A stretch of 64,000 nt of DNA. Source: Escherichia coli. GTDB lineage: Bacteria > Pseudomonadota > Gammaproteobacteria > Enterobacterales > Enterobacteriaceae. Positions 1,485 through 45,574 of this stretch are shown here, in pieces; positions within the stretch are counted from its first letter, which is position 1; every line of letters begins with the position of its first letter. The notes under the pieces were generated by a model, which was not told the DNA's origin, searched no databases, and was given only the letters and a program-made list of their open reading frames with translations. The DNA lies in the NCBI RefSeq assembly GCF_051903065.1, contig NZ_CP178438.1. One strand, 5' to 3'. A program made the translations under genes and the position numbers.

Positions 1485-2540
1485 TTAAGCCTGCGGCTGA
1501 GTTACAACGTCTTTGATGCCTTTAACTTCGATCTCAACGCGACGATCCGGAGCCAGGCAGTCGATCAGTGCAGCACGCTGTTTCACGTTGTCACAGGTGT
1601 TGCCAGTAACCGGGTTGGATTCGCCCATACCACGTGCGGAGATCTTGTCTGCCGGGATACCTTTAGAGATCAGGTAATCAACAACAGACTGAGCACGGCG
1701 CTCGGACAGACCCTGGTTGTAAGCGTCAGAACCGATGCGGTCGGTGTAACCCAGAACAACTACGGAGCCGTCTTTCGGATCCAGGTTGCTCAGCTGGCTG
1801 TACAGCTGATCCAGAGCAGCCTGACCTTCCGGTTTCAGGGTTGCTTTGTTGAAGTTGAACAGAACGTCAGACTTCAGAGTGAAGTGCTTGGTCTGTACTT
1901 CCGGTGCCGGAGCTGGAGCCGGAGCAACTACCGGAGCTGCTTCGCCCTGACCGAAACGGTAGGAAACACCCAGGCTCAGCAGGCCGTTGTCCGGACGAGT
2001 GCCGATGGTGTGTGCGTCACCGATGTTGTTGGTCCACTGGTATTCCAGACGGGTAGCGATTTCAGGAGTGATGGCCCATTCAACACCACCTGCGAATACC
2101 GGAGAAACGCCGGTATCGTGGTTTTTCTCAGATTCACCTGTCACATTGTTGTGAGCTTTGGTGTCTGCACGCCAAACCATACCACCCAGACGAGTGTACA
2201 CGTCCAGGTCGTCAGTGATTGGGTAACCCAGTTTAGCGGTCAACTGAACGCCCTGAGCTTTGTATGCACCGTTTTCAACGCTGCCTTTGTACGGCATACG
2301 ACCTAACCAGTCGTAACCCATTTCAAAGCCAACATACGGGTTAACCTGGTAACCACCAAAAGCACCAGCGCCCAGTTGGTTTTCATGGGTCGGGCCATTG
2401 TTGTCGATGAAACCAGTGTCATGGTACTGGGACCAGCCCAGTTTAGCACCAGTGTACCAGGTGTTATCTTTCGGAGCGGCCTGCGCTACGGTAGCGAAAC
2501 CAGCCAGTGCCACTGCAATCGCGATAGCTGTCTTTTTCAT
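1485..2540 (-). CDS. ompA: Outer membrane protein A (beta-barrel plus OmpA-like peptidoglycan-binding domain)
   Basis: ORF contains [21 protein letters not shown] signal peptide, AP-repeat hinge ([13 protein letters not shown]) and C-terminal OmpA domain; start trimmed to ATG at 2540 (track ORF extends to 2612). Confidence 0.97.
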
Positions 2541-24526: not shown

Positions 24527-26707
24527 TTACTCTTTCTCGGAGTAACTATAACCGTAATAGTTATAGCCGTAACTGTAAGCGGTGCTGGCGCGTTTAATCA
24601 CACCATTGAGGATTGCGCCTTTAATATTAACGCCAGCCTGTTCCAGACGCTGCATTGACAAACTCACCTCTTTGGCGGTGTTCAGGCCAAAACGTGCAAC
24701 CAGCAGGCTGGTGCCGACAGAGCGCCCCACGACCGCAGCATCGCTCACCGCCAGCATCGGCGGCGTATCGACAATCACCAGATCGTAATGGTCGTTCGCC
24801 CATTCCAGTAATTGACGCATCCGATCGCGCATCAGCAGTTCAGACGGGTTAGGTGGCACCTGACCGCGAGTAATCACATCAAAGCCTCCTTTGCCAAAAT
24901 GCTGGATCACTTTGTTGAGCTCATCTTTACCTGCCAGATATTCCGACAAGCCATGTTCATTACTCACGGTAAACAGGTTATGCGAATAACCACGGCGTAA
25001 GTCGGCATCAATAAATAACACTTTTTGATCGGACTGGGCGATCACCGCTGCCAGAGTTGAACTGACAAATGTTTTACCACTGTCTGGCGTCGCACCGGTG
25101 ATCATCAGAATGTTATTCTCAGTCTCCATCATAGCGAAATGCAGACTGGTTCGTAGCGCACGTACGGCTTCCACAGCAGAATCCGCCGGGTTATCCACCG
25201 CCAGGAAGGGGATATTTTTAGTACGATGGCGCTGCTGATTAGAAAATAAATTTTTCTTACGCAGACGGGTGCGTTTATCCAGCCACTCGGACATCGGGAT
25301 GGTGGCATAAACGCTGATGCCGTGCTCTTCCAGTTGTTCCGGGGCTTCTACACCACGACGCAACATCGCACGCGCCAGCACGGCACCCACCGAAATAAAC
25401 AGGCCAAGAATAAAACCAAGCACCACATTCAACGCTTTTTTCGGTTTCACTGGCTGCGGCTGAGTGACTGCCGGGTCGATAATCCGCACGTTACCAATCG
25501 CACTGGATTTCGAAATACTCAACTCCTGCTGGCGGTTAAGTAATTGCAGATATACCGCACGGCCCGCTTCTACGTCACGACTTAAACGCAACACTTCCTG
25601 TTGGGTGGAAGGCATTGCCGATACCCGCTTATTCAGGCGTTTGCGTTCTTGCTCCAGCGTCTGGCGTTTTTCCAGCAGCGCACGATAAGTTGGGTGATCT
25701 TTCTTATACAGCTGGGAGATCTCTGCCTCGCGGAAGGTCAGCTCATTGAGTTGATTATCAACGTTCACAATCTGCTCAAGAACGGCTTTGGCTTCCAGGT
25801 TAAGGTCAACCGAATCGCGCTGCTGGCGATAAACGTTGAGTTTTTCTTCCGCCTGGTCCAGCTCGCTGCGCACTTCAGGCAACTGGCGCTGTAAGAATTC
25901 AAGGCTTTGTGAATCCTGCGCCGCCTGGCGAGCGATATTCTGTTGCAAATAGTTGTTAGCGATGCTGTTCAGTATACGGGTAATCAACTGGGGATCATCA
26001 CCGGTCATGGTAAGTTCCAGCATCCCGCTTTCTTTACTGCGTTCGCTAACGGTAAAGGTTTCCTGCAACGCGTTAATCGCTTCCAGTTCGGTACGTTGGC
26101 TCAGGACAAACTGTGTTCCTGGTTTGGCCTTAATATCCGCGATAGTCAGCGCAACGCCATCTTTTTCCAGACGCTGGCCGACCATACCATTGACGGTGAA
26201 CTCTTCACCTTCCAGCGTATAGTGGCCGTTTTCCCCAACCGTGAGTGTCAGTAGCTGATCCTGACCATTCAGTTGTGGAATATGCATCCAGCTGATCGCC
26301 AGCTCACCTGGTTTCTCTTTGGTTAATCTCGCCCAGCCGCGACCCACAATCGGAAAATACTTCTGCTCAACCATGTCGCGCAGATTCAGTTCAGCAATGG
26401 TTTTACCGAGAATCATGCGCGATTGCAGCAGTTGGATCTCCGGTGCAGACTCGGGCGATGAGTTAGGGATCATATCACTCAGGCCGCTGAGAATGGCGTT
26501 GCCCTGTTTTTGCTCAACCTGGACCAGAGTATCTGCCTGATAAATTGGTGTGCTTAACAGCGAGTAAGCGACAGCGATCAGCGTGAATAACGCGGTCACG
26601 CTGATAATAAACTTACGGTGATCCCATAACTCGCCGACCAGACGAAGCAGATCGATCTCATTTTCCTGAGTGCTGCCTGGTGGCGTATTCATATTTTTAG
26701 TTGTCAT
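24527..26707 (-). CDS. etk: Tyrosine autokinase (BY-kinase, Wzc paralog) of the group 4 capsule cluster
   Basis: 726-aa ORF with Walker A GKT and C-terminal tyrosine cluster YSYGYNYYGYSYSEKE. Confidence 0.95.
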   Translation of the reverse strand: MTTKNMNTPPGSTQENEIDLLRLVGELWDHRKFIISVTALFTLIAVAYSLLSTPIYQADTLVQVEQKQGNAILSGLSDMIPNSSPESAPEIQLLQSRMILGKTIAELNLRDMVEQKYFPIVGRGWARLTKEKPGELAISWMHIPQLNGQDQLLTLTVGENGHYTLEGEEFTVNGMVGQRLEKDGVALTIADIKAKPGTQFVLSQRTELEAINALQETFTVSERSKESGMLELTMTGDDPQLITRILNSIANNYLQQNIARQAAQDSQSLEFLQRQLPEVRSELDQAEEKLNVYRQQRDSVDLNLEAKAVLEQIVNVDNQLNELTFREAEISQLYKKDHPTYRALLEKRQTLEQERKRLNKRVSAMPSTQQEVLRLSRDVEAGRAVYLQLLNRQQELSISKSSAIGNVRIIDPAVTQPQPVKPKKALNVVLGFILGLFISVGAVLARAMLRRGVEAPEQLEEHGISVYATIPMSEWLDKRTRLRKKNLFSNQQRHRTKNIPFLAVDNPADSAVEAVRALRTSLHFAMMETENNILMITGATPDSGKTFVSSTLAAVIAQSDQKVLFIDADLRRGYSHNLFTVSNEHGLSEYLAGKDELNKVIQHFGKGGFDVITRGQVPPNPSELLMRDRMRQLLEWANDHYDLVIVDTPPMLAVSDAAVVGRSVGTSLLVARFGLNTAKEVSLSMQRLEQAGVNIKGAILNGVIKRASTAYSYGYNYYGYSYSEKE

Positions 26708-26726
26708 CGTATTTTATAAACTCAAA

Positions 26727-27173
26727 TTACCGGCTGAGGCGCTTCGCCCATTCCTGACTGGCGCGCTCCAACATACCGTAGACATGTTCAAATGCGTCCT
26801 GACTTTTACGATAGGGATCCGGGATCTCTTTCTGTTCCAGCCATTGCCCAAACAGCATTGTCTTCCCGCGGACCTCGGGAGCGATTGCGGTAACCTGAGC
26901 AATATGTTCCGACTCCATTGCCAGAATCAGATCGTAATTTCGTGCCATCTCAGCAGTGAGCTTACGTCCGGCATGTCCTTCAAGAGATACGCCATGATTA
27001 GCGGCAACATCTGCTGCTGTCGCATCTGCAGGGTGTTTTACCAGACCATGAACACCTGCCGATTTGACTTTTACGCCTGGCAGACGTTTACGCAGCAAGC
27101 GCTCGCCAATGGGCGAACGGCAAATGTTGCCGGTACAAACCACCAGGATTGAGTTAAATTTTAGTTGGGCCAT
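26727..27173 (-). CDS. etp: Low-molecular-weight protein-tyrosine phosphatase
   Basis: [27 protein letters not shown]... (CX5R P-loop); start trimmed to ATG 27173. Confidence 0.95.
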
Positions 27174-28300
27174 GTTTGAATCCACCGTGAAGTCTCTGTC
27201 AGGTCATGCACCCCGGAAATCGTCGGTACCAGCAGGGAAATCACACGGTTCCAACGAGCCAGCGGCGCGGTAGTGACATAAACAATGTCGTAAGGTTCAA
27301 GCTGGAATTCCGTTCCGAGTATCATTGCCGATGCGTCCTTCGCATTCAGCTGATAAATATTGGCGATTTTGCCATTCTGCTTGTTTTGCGTTGCACGAAT
27401 AACAAAAATCCCCGTCGCATCAGCGACATCCTGATTCATACCCTCAGCGTTACCCAGCGCTTCCGCCAGGGTCATACCGCTGCGGTCCATTTTCAGCGTG
27501 CTCTGTTTACCCACTTCACCCATCACGAAGACTTTCAGATCATCGTTGCGCGGAATAAATAAAATATCGCCCGGGTGCAGCAGTTTGTTCTGGCGCAAGT
27601 CGCCACGCTGCATCAGCGCATAGAGGTTCACTTTGGTCTTTACGCCATTCTGGGTGAGCACCACATTGCGCCAGTCTGCATCTGCGGTCAGACCGCCCGC
27701 GGCGTTAATCGCATCCATGATGGTCAGAGGAATATTGGTAATCGGCTGCTGACCCGATTTGCTGACTTCGCCGGTGACGTACGCTTTTTGCGAGCGGAAC
27801 GCCGCGACGCTGACATCGACCTGCGGGCTTTCAATGACTGAATCCAGACGCGCTGTAATCTCGTTGCGTACCTGGGTAAGTGTTTTCCCGGCCACTTTCA
27901 GGCGACCAATATAGGGGTAGAAAATCGCACCATCGGCGTTAACCCAGTTGCCGGTATCACTGGCGCTACGGTATTGCCCTGCGGGGGTGGTTAGTTCCGG
28001 GTGATCCCAGACCGTAACCATCAACACATCACCAATGCCGATACGATATTCATAGTTCGCGATTTGCTGCTCCAGCTCCGGGTTAGCCTGCGACATAATC
28101 GGTTTGGCGCGCAGCTGATCAATCAATCCTGGCGTGACGGGATAGATATTGACCATTTTGTCCAGGTCATACTGATTGTCAGGTAGTTCAATGACATCTT
28201 TGTTACTGGTCGATAAATTCTGACCAGGAACAAGGGTACATGCTGTCAAAGACAGAACAGCCAATGTCAGTACCGAAAACTTAAAAATGTTCTTTTTCAT
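27161..28300 (-). CDS. gfcE: Wza-like outer-membrane polysaccharide export lipoprotein
   Basis: [26 protein letters not shown]... (lipobox); overlaps etp by 13 bp. Confidence 0.93.
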
Positions 28301-28345
28301 TGGTTTATATTTATCAGTCAATGTAATGTTATGAATTACGTCAGG

Positions 28346-30442
28346 TTATTGTCCAACCGGTACTTCTCGCTCTGCCGTCATTGGATAGAGCTGGTATTTG
28401 CGTGACAGCATTTGTCCACCATCACGCGTCAATGGTGTCCACGAAACCACCGCGCGGTTGCGGTTAGGTCCAATGGTCATCAAGTCGAACGGAATCGAGA
28501 TATAAAAACCTTTACTAAAGCCGCCTTCGCCGTAGTCATCTTTAGATACGTTACTGATTGCCGCCCATACCCCTACCGCCACGCCGCTGTCAAAGCGTTT
28601 GGCGACGTCGATCGTTGCGCCTTTATCTTTTGCCAGATATTGCCCAACGCTAAGTTTCATCAGTACGCCATTGAGCGTCGGCGGGTTCCAGTAAGCCGTC
28701 ACGAAACCTGTGGGCGTGGAATAATCGGTGAAGCGCATCATGTTGTCCCAGTCACGTTGCTTCACGTAGTTAACGTCCACACCCAGCGCCCAGCTGGCAT
28801 CTAGCGGGCGATAAAGCAGCTCGGAACCGACACCGGCGTACATCGTTTCCAGATAACCGCCATACACCTGGCCATAGAAACCATTGCCTAAGTCGGCAAA
28901 GTAGTTCGCCTGCAAGTTGTTGAGATAAACGTCATTGCGAACGTAATCACGGATATGCGTGCGCACGCGGGGCAGGGTAGAGTCCGCGGGCAACAGTGAA
29001 GACTTAAACTTGTCGTAGTTGTTGTAAATATTGGTGAAAATACCGCCATCAAGCAGCAGGTGGTCGGTAAACCAGTAGCGGGCGCTGGACATCAGCCCCA
29101 GCTGGAACATATAGAAATCTTCCGGGCCGCCCAGCGACTGTGAAAGTGTTGGGTTGAAAGAGTAGCTAAAGCGATCTTCACGAATACGGTAGCCCCGACC
29201 AAAGGCAGAAAGATCTTCAGCTTCAACACGTTGTTGTTGCAGTGGCTCTGATTGACCAGGCGCTGTACCTGCCAGCTGTTTGCGCAGGCTGGCTACGTCG
29301 GTTTCGGTAGTCACCATCGCCATATGCTCGCGCTTTTGCGTCACGCTAATCTTCTCAACGCCTTGCGGCAGGTTATTCACCAGAATCCGGTTGGCACGAT
29401 CGACCGCTTCACGAGAGTCACGGTATTTGTATTGCTGACCAGACATATACAGCGTCTTATCGCGTAGCTGAATTTCTGGCGCGTCAAAGCCCGCGTTATA
29501 CTTCAGGGCGGTAAGTTGGTTTGCTACCGTGGTGTACTGCAATCCTTCAGATTCAGGCGCAGGTTGATATGCCGGTTTTGGCGTATCGCGCAGGGCAGGG
29601 CGCAGATCGTTGAAATTGGTCCGTAAAGTGAAACCAAACATCAACGTGTTACCGCGTTCATAACTCAGGTTGAGGTCTGCCCAGCTGGCAGCGCGATAAA
29701 CTGCACCGACGTTGAAATGGCTTGCCTGAGGCAGTTTGCCAGCGAAATCATTCTGGTAATTGTTGCCGTCGTATTCGAGTTTCAGACGCAGGGGATTCCA
29801 CGGCGTTTGATACTCAATGCCGCCAAAGATGGAGGCTGGGCCACGAAAGATATCGCTAAAGCTGATATCGCCCGCATCGTGAGACTCTGCGCGATGACAA
29901 TATTTATCGCTCACCCGGCAAAACGGGTTGGTAATATTGCCCGCATTACCGGCGTAGCCCCATGCCATCCCGAGGGTGAAATCAAATGGCCCCGCTTGCT
30001 TGCTGGCCACCAGATACTCACTGTCAAACCGACCCGTACCAGCAATATCACGTTTACCAAACGCCACTTGCGGTAGCCAGTAACCTTCTTCCCACAGGCG
30101 AAGTTTAAAATCGAATGATTTGTCTTTGTATGACTGATCGCCGCTGAAATCTTCCCACTGGCTATATTTGCGTGTGCGCACATCCGTATAACGAATGGTG
30201 CCTTCCAGCCATGGGAACAGCGCCACGGACGTGGAGTAGAAACGGTACTGATCGTTATCCCGGTAGTTGACGCTGAATTCACCTTCCGGTGCGATGCGCG
30301 CATTTGGCATCTGCAACAATCCTGTACCGCCAAAGTCCGATTGCGACGAACCCAGCGGATCCGGGTAGGTTAATACTTCAGCATGACAGGCACTGGAGAC
30401 GGCAATGGCCAGGCAGCTTAAAAGATAAGAATTCTTCTTCAT
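28346..30442 (-). CDS. gfcD: Group 4 capsule outer-membrane protein GfcD
   Basis: 698-aa ORF with signal peptide, conserved operon position. Confidence 0.9.
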
Positions 30443-31188
30443 CAGTCAGGAACACGTTGCGTTAAAACAGACACAATCTGGTCATTTAAATCAGCATATT
30501 TTTCGGGCAGTACATGCGCAGAAAAGCCTAACCAAAGCTGGCTGCCAGGCGGTGGTTCCACATGTCTTTTATTCCACAGGGCAACAGGGGCGACGACAGT
30601 CTCACCCTCAGGCGTAATCACGATAACGTTATTCTTGTCCGCGCCTGCAAGACGGGGGTGATCTTGCAGATAATCGGTAACGCTACGGCCTGCCTGCCAC
30701 GGCAATTGCCCAGCCCCAGAAACCGCACCCAGCAGAGTAATAGTCACCGGGCGCTGTACGGTATAGAGCGTATAGTCCCCGACCAGCGGGGGATTGCTGT
30801 TCTCATCCACTCGTACAAAATCAGGGTCCAGTTTGATCGGTAAGCGACCAGTGATATTGAGATTGAGTAACTGCTGGCGCACGGATTTAATCGTTGCCGC
30901 CACATCGTCGTCAGCTTCTGCTTCCCAGGAAGCAAGCTGTGCCATGACATGTTGGTAGTCTTTAAGCGCTTTAGCTTTCACCGCAGAGTCGGTCAGCAAG
31001 GCACCAGGCCACCAGAGGCGATCGCGCAGTTGCGGTTGTGTCACCAACTGGACAACATTTTCCACGGGGCCAACGGAAAGTGTCTGTTGTTCGCCAGGCA
31101 GATAAATAGTCACCGTTCCTTGCGCAAAGGCATGGGGTGTCATTACGTAAAGTACGCTGGCAATGAAATACGACTGTAATATATTCAT
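30442..31188 (-). CDS. gfcC: Group 4 capsule periplasmic protein GfcC
   Basis: 248-aa ORF with signal peptide [22 protein letters not shown]. Confidence 0.9.
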
Positions 31189-31829
31189 GGTGCGGGTTTA
31201 AGAAACGTCATTTCTACGGGAATAACCCCTGCGCCTAACATTTGTCGACTTTGACGAACCTGGCCAGTAGCCGAATCGACCCAGAATATGTTTTGCCACT
31301 GTTTTTCTGGCAGCGTGGAAGTCACCTCTTCCTGCCAGACATTACACAGCACATCGCGACCCGCAATATGCAGCGTCTCTAATCCAGCAAAGGAAAAAGT
31401 GGAACTCAGGGTCGCAGAGCGAAAATGGTTGTCTTCACTCCAGAGAATATCGCGCGTCCAGCGGCTGCCGTCTTTTATTGCCAGCGCGTTACGCAGAGGG
31501 TCCTGCCCGGAATTTGTCACTTCCAGCAGATTATTATTAAGTTTGACGGTCTTTAAAAGACGTCCATTGTGGGTAACCAGCATGGCGTTATCCTGGGATA
31601 ACCATTTGCTTTGTTCTTGTTCTATATATCCCAGTACCACAAAGATTCGTTGCCCTTCATTAAGGCGTAAATACATCGTGGAATAAGGCAACGCCTGGAT
31701 CTGCTGATCCGCTACGGTGATATCCTGATTATCGAAAAGGCTGGCGCGAAATGTATCGACCATACTTTGCTGGCTGTGCGTACATCCCGCAAGAAATAGT
31801 GCGAAAATCGATAAAATAAGAGGGCGCAC
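31185..31829 (-). CDS. gfcB: Group 4 capsule lipoprotein GfcB
   Basis: 214-aa ORF MRPLILSIFALFLAGCTHS (lipobox). Confidence 0.9.
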   Translation of the reverse strand: MRPLILSIFALFLAGCTHSQQSMVDTFRASLFDNQDITVADQQIQALPYSTMYLRLNEGQRIFVVLGYIEQEQSKWLSQDNAMLVTHNGRLLKTVKLNNNLLEVTNSGQDPLRNALAIKDGSRWTRDILWSEDNHFRSATLSSTFSFAGLETLHIAGRDVLCNVWQEEVTSTLPEKQWQNIFWVDSATGQVRQSRQMLGAGVIPVEMTFLKPAP

Positions 31830-31935
31830 CTTTAATCCTTGAAAGGTTAATTAAAAAAATGCAAATCTCTAAAGCCCGGTACGAATATCGCAACCGGGTA
31901 TTATTTAACTTTAATTTCGACGCGTTTAAGCAGAA

Positions 31936-32241
31936 TTAGCGCGTAGTGGACGTGGTGGTTGAGGTGTTATGAGAACCGCCATCGCCACTGTCATTTGCTG
32001 CAACTACTGCCAACGTCGCCACACCAACAGCCGTTGCCACACCGACAACTGTCGCCGTGCCGACAGCGCCAGCAGCCACGCCACCAGTGGTAGCAGCCGT
32101 CGTGGTTGCACCGGTAGTGGTCGTTGTGGTGCCAGTAGTACCCGTCGTTGCCTCGGTCCCGTTTGCTGCTTCAGGGGCAGCAAACGCAGCTGGCGTCGTC
32201 AACATGAAGGCCATAAGGATTGCAGAAAGCTTGTGTTTCAT
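31936..32241 (-). CDS. gfcA: Thr-rich small membrane protein GfcA
   Basis: ORF MKHKLSAILMAFMLTTPAAFA followed by Thr/Gly/Ala/Val low-complexity; start trimmed to ATG 32241. Confidence 0.85.
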   Translation of the reverse strand: MKHKLSAILMAFMLTTPAAFAAPEAANGTEATTGTTGTTTTTTGATTTAATTGGVAAGAVGTATVVGVATAVGVATLAVVAANDSGDGGSHNTSTTTSTTR

Positions 32242-32894: not shown

Positions 32895-33180
32895 ACAAAT
32901 TCCTTACTGAAAATACTGCGCTGCACTATACGGGGTTAATAAAATAAAGCCAGCGATATTTAAGACCGCCGGACGGCTAAAATAAAATTTGCTTAATCTC
33001 AATTATCATGCGTTAATAGCTGCGTCGGTTTGAAAGACAGACAGCATACAAAGTAGTTTACTAAAGCAGTTCTCATTATCAGGCATTATCCCCTTCTTTT
33101 GAGTCTCTCTCCTGAACACTAAGTAGTTTCTGTATTAAAGCCCTGTTTGCCGAAAGGCCCAACAATGAAGGAAGTAAAAT

Positions 33181-33393
33181 ATGTCTAATAAAATGACTGG
33201 TTTAGTAAAATGGTTTAACGCAGATAAAGGTTTTGGCTTTATCACTCCTGATGATGGCAGCAAAGACGTTTTCGTCCATTTCACCGCCATCCAGAGCAAT
33301 GAATTCCGCACGCTGAACGAAAATCAGAAAGTTGAATTTTCTATTGAGCAGGGGCAACGTGGCCCCGCGGCAGCGAACGTTGTTACGCTCTAA
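33181..33393 (+). CDS. cspG: Cold-shock protein CspG
   Basis: 70-aa [41 protein letters not shown]... with RNP motifs. Confidence 0.95.
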
Positions 33394-33394
33394 G

Positions 33395-33592
33395 GTTGCC
33401 GTTATTACTCAACATCTCCATTTCCGCTGTCCATGTTGTCATGGTTCACAGTACCGTACATCGGCATTCGATGTGACGGAGCGAAACCCTTTGGGCGCTA
33501 AGTGTATTTTTTGTAAATCGACGATGATCACCTTTGATAACGTCGCGCTGCAAATACGCACTGACCATGCGCCGCTGGATTTCACAAAATAA
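33395..33592 (+). CDS. ymcF: Small CxxC zinc-ribbon-like protein downstream of cspG (start codon uncertain)
   Basis: Open frame ...HFRCPCCHGSQYRTSAFDVTERNPLGAKCIFCKSTMITFDNVALQIRTDHAPLDFTK ending at 33592; the track ORF 33332-33592 overlaps cspG so the true start must be a non-ATG or internal codon. Confidence 0.45.
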   Translation, partial: VAVITQHLHFRCPCCHGSQYRTSAFDVTERNPLGAKCIFCKSTMITFDNVALQIRTDHAPLDFTK

Positions 33593-44148: not shown

Positions 44149-44678
44149 TGAACTGCACCCCAAATGTTGGACATAATCTGACATCTGAAGGTGCAGTTTA
44201 TGAAACATTCATTTGAAGTAAAACTTGCCGCTGTAAATCATTACCTGGCCGGTCATGCAGGCATCATTTCTACGGCAAAACTCTTTCAACTTTCTCACAC
44301 CAGCCTCTCACACTGGATTAATCTTTTTCTTCTTCACGGTCCTCAGGCACTGGATTGCAGACACAAGCGTAGCTATTCTCCTGAAGATAAACTTTGCGTG
44401 GTTCTTTATGCTCTCGGGCATTCTGAGTCTCTACCCCGGGTAGCTGCCCGGTTTAACATTCCCAGCCACAACATGGTTAAAAACTGGATAAAAGGCTACC
44501 GCAAATCTGGTAATGAGGCCTTTATCAGGCGCAGGAAGGAGAAAAGCATGACCCGTTCTGATGATACCCATGAAAACGAGGCAAACATGACGCCGGAAGA
44601 GATGAAGAATGAGCTGCGTTATCTTCGCGCAGAAAATGCATATCTGAAAGCCATGCAGGAGCATCTCCTGGAAAAAAA

Positions 44679-45574
<896 letters not shown>

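Follow-up and report, generated by a model that had tools for sequence, protein, structure and literature searches.

A long loop 3 in Escherichia coli OmpA: a known natural allele of probable mosaic origin

How does an otherwise conserved porin gene come to carry a surface loop that is longer than its K-12 counterpart, and does the difference matter to the cell? The question is raised by the ompA gene in a stretch of 64,000 nucleotides of Escherichia coli DNA (the window hereafter), in which a reading made from the letters alone had described an extended loop 3 and several further substitutions. The coding sequence occupies positions 1485..2540 on the minus strand and specifies 351 amino acids plus a stop codon, as assigned by translation, Pfam and the annotation of a near-identical genome; the latter, NZ_AP045789.1 (E. 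coli 23CRST027, from human faeces in Ecuador), differs from the whole 64-kb window by 3 bases across its positions 1366518-1430517. The product shows the Pfam organisation of OmpA, in which a signal peptide is followed by the barrel, a proline-rich linker and a peptidoglycan-binding domain, with OmpA_membrane (PF01389) covering residues 23-200 at 275 bits (cutoff 21) and the OmpA domain (PF00691) covering residues 227-322 at 85.5 bits. It matches PDB entry 3NB3 with a phmmer E-value of 1e-228 and equals RefSeq protein WP_000750414.1, named by NCBI 'MULTISPECIES: porin OmpA [Enterobacteriaceae]'. The gene order ycbZ-matP-ompA-sulA-sxy-yccS is that of K-12 MG1655, so that ompA stands at the orthologous chromosomal position, and its promoter and 5' UTR depart from K-12 by a few scattered single-base changes only. 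The terminator (1443-1470) has one altered loop base, CCCCGCAGCTGCGGGG against CCCCGCTGCTGCGGGG in K-12, with the stem intact, and single-base indels relative to K-12 are found just past its T-run. A scan of Rfam returned no match tied to ompA.

The remainder of the window offers some observations of its own. An IS3-family element lies between torD and cbpM (44200-45548) and is annotated in the near-identical genome as an IS1397 transposase with a programmed frameshift. The etk-etp-gfcE-D-C-B-A operon (24527-32241) is annotated as complete, and no IS element is annotated between gfcA (end 32241) and cspH (start 32682); in K-12 an IS1 upstream of the etk-etp-gfc operon silences it, and to judge from the annotation the operon may be expressible in the window strain. 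The Rfam cspA thermoregulator RF01766 matches 33024-33447, which takes in the cspG 5' UTR and the beginning of that gene, at 159.7 bits.

The OmpA of MG1655 (NC_000913, b0957), fetched and aligned, served as the K-12 reference. Loop 3 of the window protein is five residues longer than that of K-12 (RADTKSNVYGKNHDTG) by this alignment, and the MG1655 region reads TKSNVYGKNHDTG in the fetched gene; the K-12 loop sequence given by the sequence-only reading is correct, and the loops are not identical to K-12. Translation of 2109-2171 on the minus strand, taken with the alignment, confirms the extension and puts the loop 3 region at 2109..2162 (minus strand), where the window protein has five residues and two glutamates more than K-12; the changes consist of serine to alanine, tyrosine to threonine and the five inserted residues. 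The boundaries first given for the loop, 2112-2162, do cover T127-T143 of the precursor but miss the final glycine at 2109-2111 and thus fall 3 nt short. The further substitutions noticed at the outset are likewise real in the alignment (GFIDNNG in the window for GFINNNG in K-12, DVYT for DIYT, VEWAIT for VEYAIT and NGLLSL for NGMLSL). On the minus strand, codon 46 (mature residue 25; 2403..2405) is GAC for aspartate where K-12 has AAC for asparagine, in the mobile part of loop 1; codon 114 (mature 93; 2199..2201) has valine for isoleucine where strand 5 begins, close to the periplasmic turn; codon 155 (K-12 mature 129; 2076..2078) has tryptophan for tyrosine at the end of strand 6, again near the periplasmic turn; and codon 187 (K-12 mature 161; 1980..1982) has leucine for methionine at the start of strand 8, where it adjoins loop 4. 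Everywhere else the protein is that of K-12, which holds for loops 2 and 4 as well as for the linker and the C-terminal domain. The changes had been said to concentrate in extracellular loops, and this describes 8 of the 11 residue-level differences but not I93V, Y129W and M161L, which fall in barrel strands.

It is next to inconceivable that the long loop is an artefact, be it of assembly, of sequencing or of a wrong K-12 reference. The only point in its favour was the caveat of the original reading that its reference sequence might be wrong, and the fetched and aligned MG1655 gene showed that sequence to be correct. The explanation was rejected, the identical gene being present in 8 independent complete genomes, a near-identical one in 66, and the exact protein in thousands of assemblies.

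The position of the differences in the barrel can be read from an AlphaFold2 model built on an alignment of 57 sequences, in which the pLDDT of the barrel strands is about 80-92. The eight modelled strands comprise residues 28-39, 54-65, 70-85, 90-107, 112-129, 138-156, 161-170 and 185-195. Loop 1 (residues 40-53) has D46 inside it, residues 130-137 form the loop 3 tip of the long hairpin of strands 5 and 6 with a pLDDT of about 66-75, lower than that of the strands, and the strands to either side of loop 3 carry V114 and W155 at their periplasmic ends. The same placement of these positions in strands and loops is given by Liao et al. (2017; PMC5413513), and the mapping onto the barrel that had been proposed as a check is consistent between model and literature. 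The three strand substitutions, I93V, Y129W and M161L, are conservative, and their states recur elsewhere: among 99 other Enterobacterales species representatives, tryptophan occupies position 129 in 28, valine position 93 in 45 and leucine position 161 in 30. Owing to D25 and the two extra glutamates, the barrel carries 3 more units of net negative charge than that of K-12.

The natural allele in the window has been described before, as pattern (V, alpha) by Liao et al. (2017). The K-12 alignment and Tables 3A, 4 and 5 of that study agree at 10 of 10 scored positions: the N-terminal states are those of pattern V (25 D, 66-68 SVE, 93 V, loop 3, 129 W, 149 H and 161 L), the C-terminal states those of pattern alpha (175 A, 203 N and 251 G), and K-12 itself is (I, alpha). 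A literature search for the loop peptide had Liao et al. (2017) as its sole match. The (V, alpha) pattern made up 6.4% of 78 environmental isolates, and W129 was limited to pattern V and linked to the long loop 3 with rho=1.00 (Table 4; PMC5413513). A clone of the allele taken from isolate 62 was expressed in MG1655 delta-ompA, where attachment to corn stover was greater than with the K-12 allele (P=0.020), the sole property that differed (PMC5413513). In subsequent work (V, alpha) could not be told apart statistically from the K-12 allele in zeta potential, hydrophobicity and biofilm formation, nor in neutrophil-elastase killing and growth under eight stresses (Liao 2022, PLoS One; PMC9560509). 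The bulk surface phenotypes are unchanged despite a published loop-charge prediction that is the most negative for (V, alpha), at -6.9 against -3.9 for the K-12 allele, in accord with the 3-unit charge difference computed for the barrel.

The nucleotide sequence suggests how the long loop came to reside in a K-12-like gene. Background divergence from K-12 is about 1% over 5.5 kb, and positions 1982-2244 of the window hold 25 substitutions and a 15-nt indel. Codons 1-98 have no synonymous difference from K-12, a single nonsynonymous one (N46D, or N25D in mature numbering, the sole K-12 difference in this part) and no indel; codons 99-156 have 13 synonymous and 4 nonsynonymous differences and a 5-codon (15-nt) indel; codons 157-351 have 5 synonymous differences, 1 nonsynonymous difference and no indel. 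When tested for evenness across the gene, the synonymous differences proved not to be even, 13 of the 18 lying within the 53 aligned codons of the 99-156 interval (binomial P=1e-7, Fisher P=3e-8). Codon comparison and the clustering test together delimit a divergent cassette at 2073..2246 on the minus strand that spans strand 5, loop 3 and strand 6, and the clustering of synonymous changes argues for a segment with a separate ancestry, not for point mutations selected in place. The 269-nt block 1982-2250 is 86.6% identical to K-12, in comparison with 99.7% over the first 290 nt of the gene and 99.0% over the last 497 nt. Its identity to the pattern II/III allele is 88.8%, to Salmonella arizonae 87.4% and to E. 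albertii 87.8%, the same level as that of other E. coli alleles (86.6-89%). Judged by these comparisons, a cassette of roughly 175-265 bp has an ancestry of its own. Chen et al. (bioRxiv 10.1101/2021.09.21.461324) count ompA among the E. coli porins that evolve by local recombination in hypervariable regions coding for loops. Most likely, the cassette was placed by homologous recombination within ompA and then passed between E. coli lineages; codons 1-98, save for N25D, and the C-terminal half are K-12-like, and the cassette between them is of much older, separate ancestry.

The distribution of the cassette was determined in a sample of 5,426 complete E. coli genomes. The whole 1,056-nt gene is at least 99% identical in 66 of them and 100% identical in 8. 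Over a 151-nt cassette around loop 3, 67 genomes reach at least 99% identity and a further 4 lie at 95-99%, a total of 71 (1.3%), while the remaining matching genomes reach about 83% or less over the same 151 nt with nothing in between. This gap in identity from 83% to 95% marks a discrete allele class, as the sequence-only reading had proposed. Among the carriers are many STEC O145:H28 strains, along with O157:H16 Santai and strains of O78 and APEC type, and the isolates were obtained from cattle, poultry, pigs, mink, fish and water as well as from humans and a baboon. The annotations of O145, O78 and O157:H16 strains and of the baboon isolate give the protein as WP_000750414.1. Public assemblies record the exact protein in 8,017 blocks, and in 10 of 10 retrieved assemblies that encode it ompA lies between sulA and matP. 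Three carriers of different serotypes show zero differences from the window within 1982-2250 and differ from it by 0.4-0.6% over 10.5 kb of flanks.

The cassette also occurs outside its usual context. Strain CUVET18-789 from cat urine (NZ_CP115312.1, ompA at 371-1426 of the retrieved locus) is a sub-variant whose OmpA pairs the long loop 3 with loop 1 N, loop 4 N and 203 T, a combination that does not figure among the patterns of Liao et al. considered here (PMC5413513); the 95-99% identity band, which includes this type, amounts to 4 of the 5,426 genomes. Such a combination indicates that the cassette reassorts with other variable sites. The 3' half of ompA appears to have been reassorted even within the allele class: the window differs from K-12 at the synonymous sites 1518, 1536, 1665, 1767 and 1932 in the C-terminal domain, and other pattern V carriers agree with K-12 at three or four of these five. 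The expectation that the allele would be a quick strain marker holds in so far as it is rare (about 1.3%), but it is common to unrelated serotypes and hosts and the sub-variant combines the long loop with other loop 1, loop 4 and C-terminal states, so that the allele narrows the possibilities and identifies no lineage.

Where did the cassette come from? A degenerate pattern, MVWRAD(7-17 aa)HDTGV, was run against 100,044 species-representative genomes and yielded at least 120 OmpA loci. In the loci listed, loop 3 is hypervariable both in sequence and in length, with 7-15 residues separating the invariant RAD from HDTG. A K-12-type loop 3 of 9 residues (TK..KN counted) is also present in Citrobacter, Enterobacter, Kluyvera and Yokenella among the matches listed, and the window-type length of 14 residues in Klebsiella, Raoultella, Serratia, Photorhabdus and Phytobacter. 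The loop closest in form among these matches is that of Escherichia sp. ESNIH1, AKAQRPGTGESFKD. The long-loop motif of the window occurs in none of the at least 120 Enterobacterales matches listed, nor does any of them have a block more than 89% identical to the cassette; the best are Escherichia alleles. With no donor among the matches listed, either the donor has yet to be sampled or the cassette has long been polymorphic in E. coli and Shigella. Recent acquisition from a different species or genus of the Enterobacteriaceae, in place of an old E. coli polymorphism, would fit the fact that the cassette is as far from other E. coli alleles as from S. arizonae and E. albertii, that a 14-residue loop 3 and Trp 129 are usual in Klebsiella, Raoultella, Serratia and further genera, and that ESNIH1 shares the ..TGES.K.HDTG motif. 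Such an import is nevertheless quite improbable in our estimation, since the scan brought to light neither the motif nor a closer block among the matches listed, its best matches were Escherichia alleles, and both codon usage and flanks are E. coli-like.

The product is a standard eight-stranded OmpA barrel, most likely fully functional, with a longer hairpin tip and a more acidic surface, and diversifying or frequency-dependent selection most likely keeps discrete loop variants such as this one at low frequency. The candidate selecting agents would be the adhesins (Gp38) of T-even-type phages, colicins and host immune effectors. Phages K3 and Ox2 depend on loops 1-4 and on residues 25, 70, 110 and 154, and mature residue 25 is a classical phage-resistance site according to statements quoted from Morona (1984) and Koebnik (1999); residue 110 is a resistance site in K-12 as well. 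Two of these four sites, 25 and 110, coincide with changes in the window allele. Gp38 phages are divided into type 1 and type 2, the latter with narrow adhesins (PMC12032242). Eight natural OmpA variants from the ECOR collection, expressed in MG1655 and challenged with Gp38 phages, decided infection by those of narrow host range, for which only two loop 3 types were permissive, combined with one loop 2 type. By analogy, recognition of the window allele by phages, colicins or antibodies may be altered, and the K3/Ox2 sites and the ECOR results together make a receptor-surface variant, shuffled under phage, colicin or immune pressure, the best-supported reading.

It could be argued instead that the polymorphism is neutral, an old loop 3 variant that drifts or hitch-hikes by way of recombination and whose longer loop has no selective role. 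The failure to tell (V, alpha) from the K-12 allele in four surface properties and in growth under eight stresses (PMC9560509) agrees with this view, as do the conservative strand substitutions with their states common in other species, and the low frequency of about 1.3%. We deem neutrality unlikely all the same: the protein differences are concentrated in the exposed tip, and nearly all differences in the strands are synonymous; between invariant flanks, loop 3 is hypervariable across at least 120 listed species; natural loop variants shift the host range of phages in isogenic backgrounds; and the cassette is without differences among the compared carriers despite their divergent backgrounds. 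The locus is very probably an intact, normally placed chromosomal ompA, representing a known mosaic allele with a recombined loop 3 cassette that is likely kept by selection on the loops. More specifically, and only as a tentative and rather doubtful proposal, the long acidic loop 3 and D25 might form a receptor-escape module against type 2 Gp38 T-even-type phages or colicins U/L, held at low frequency by frequency-dependent selection and carried from lineage to lineage (e.g. STEC O145:H28) by intragenic recombination from an unsampled donor.

Since the allele has already been catalogued, cloned and phenotyped, the locus is of little significance in itself. As a rare (about 1.3%), polyphyletic ompA type it bears on the prediction of host range for OmpA-dependent phages and on OmpA-based vaccine or typing schemes, where its practical value is modest, and it shows in textbook fashion how recombination swaps a cassette that codes for a loop within an otherwise conserved porin gene.

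Among known OmpA proteins, that of K-12 (b0957; 1BXW, 1QJP, 1G90, 2GE4, 3NB3 and 9FZC) is encoded at the same locus and has 98% protein identity to the window protein. The two share the signal peptide, strands 1-4, loop 2, loop 4 and the periplasmic domain; K-12 differs in a loop 3 that reads SNVYGKN and is 5 residues shorter, in 25 N, 93 I, 129 Y and 161 M, and in a net loop charge about 3 units less negative. The long loop of the window is absent from the five best-matching solved E. coli OmpA barrels; 9FZD is a further match to the protein. The common E. coli patterns II/III, found also in E. albertii, resemble the window in having a long loop 3 at the same position (+4 residues relative to K-12) but have other sequences in loops 1, 2 and 3 (loop 1 P, loop 2 DNI, loop 3 ANVPGGASFKD) and tyrosine at 129; their identity to the window is 88-89% over the cassette and 93.8% over the first 290 nt. 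The Klebsiella pneumoniae OmpA barrel (PDB 2K0L) is the only solved structure found with a loop 3 of equal length (SKGNYASTGVSRSEHDTG), and it has tryptophan at the equivalent of position 129 (VEWAVT), yet it belongs to another genus, its loop 1 is longer, its loop 3 differs in sequence and its overall identity is lower. The OmpA of Shigella dysenteriae that Braun and Cole described in 1982 is reportedly 351 amino acids long, with the long loop 3 of the window protein. Chen et al. (bioRxiv 10.1101/2021.09.21.461324) distinguish three groups of E. coli and Shigella OmpA, one of them typified by S. dysenteriae Sd197 and its loop 2 SVE. The S. dysenteriae protein may differ from that of the window by at least one residue, because the UniRef100 cluster of the exact window OmpA holds E. 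coli entries only. Compared with the (V, alpha) allele of Liao et al. (2017; Front Microbiol 8:708, PMC5413513) there is no protein-level difference, and what is new here is the absence of the long loop from other species representatives among the at least 120 matches listed, its frequency in 5,426 complete genomes and the boundaries of the cassette at the nucleotide level.
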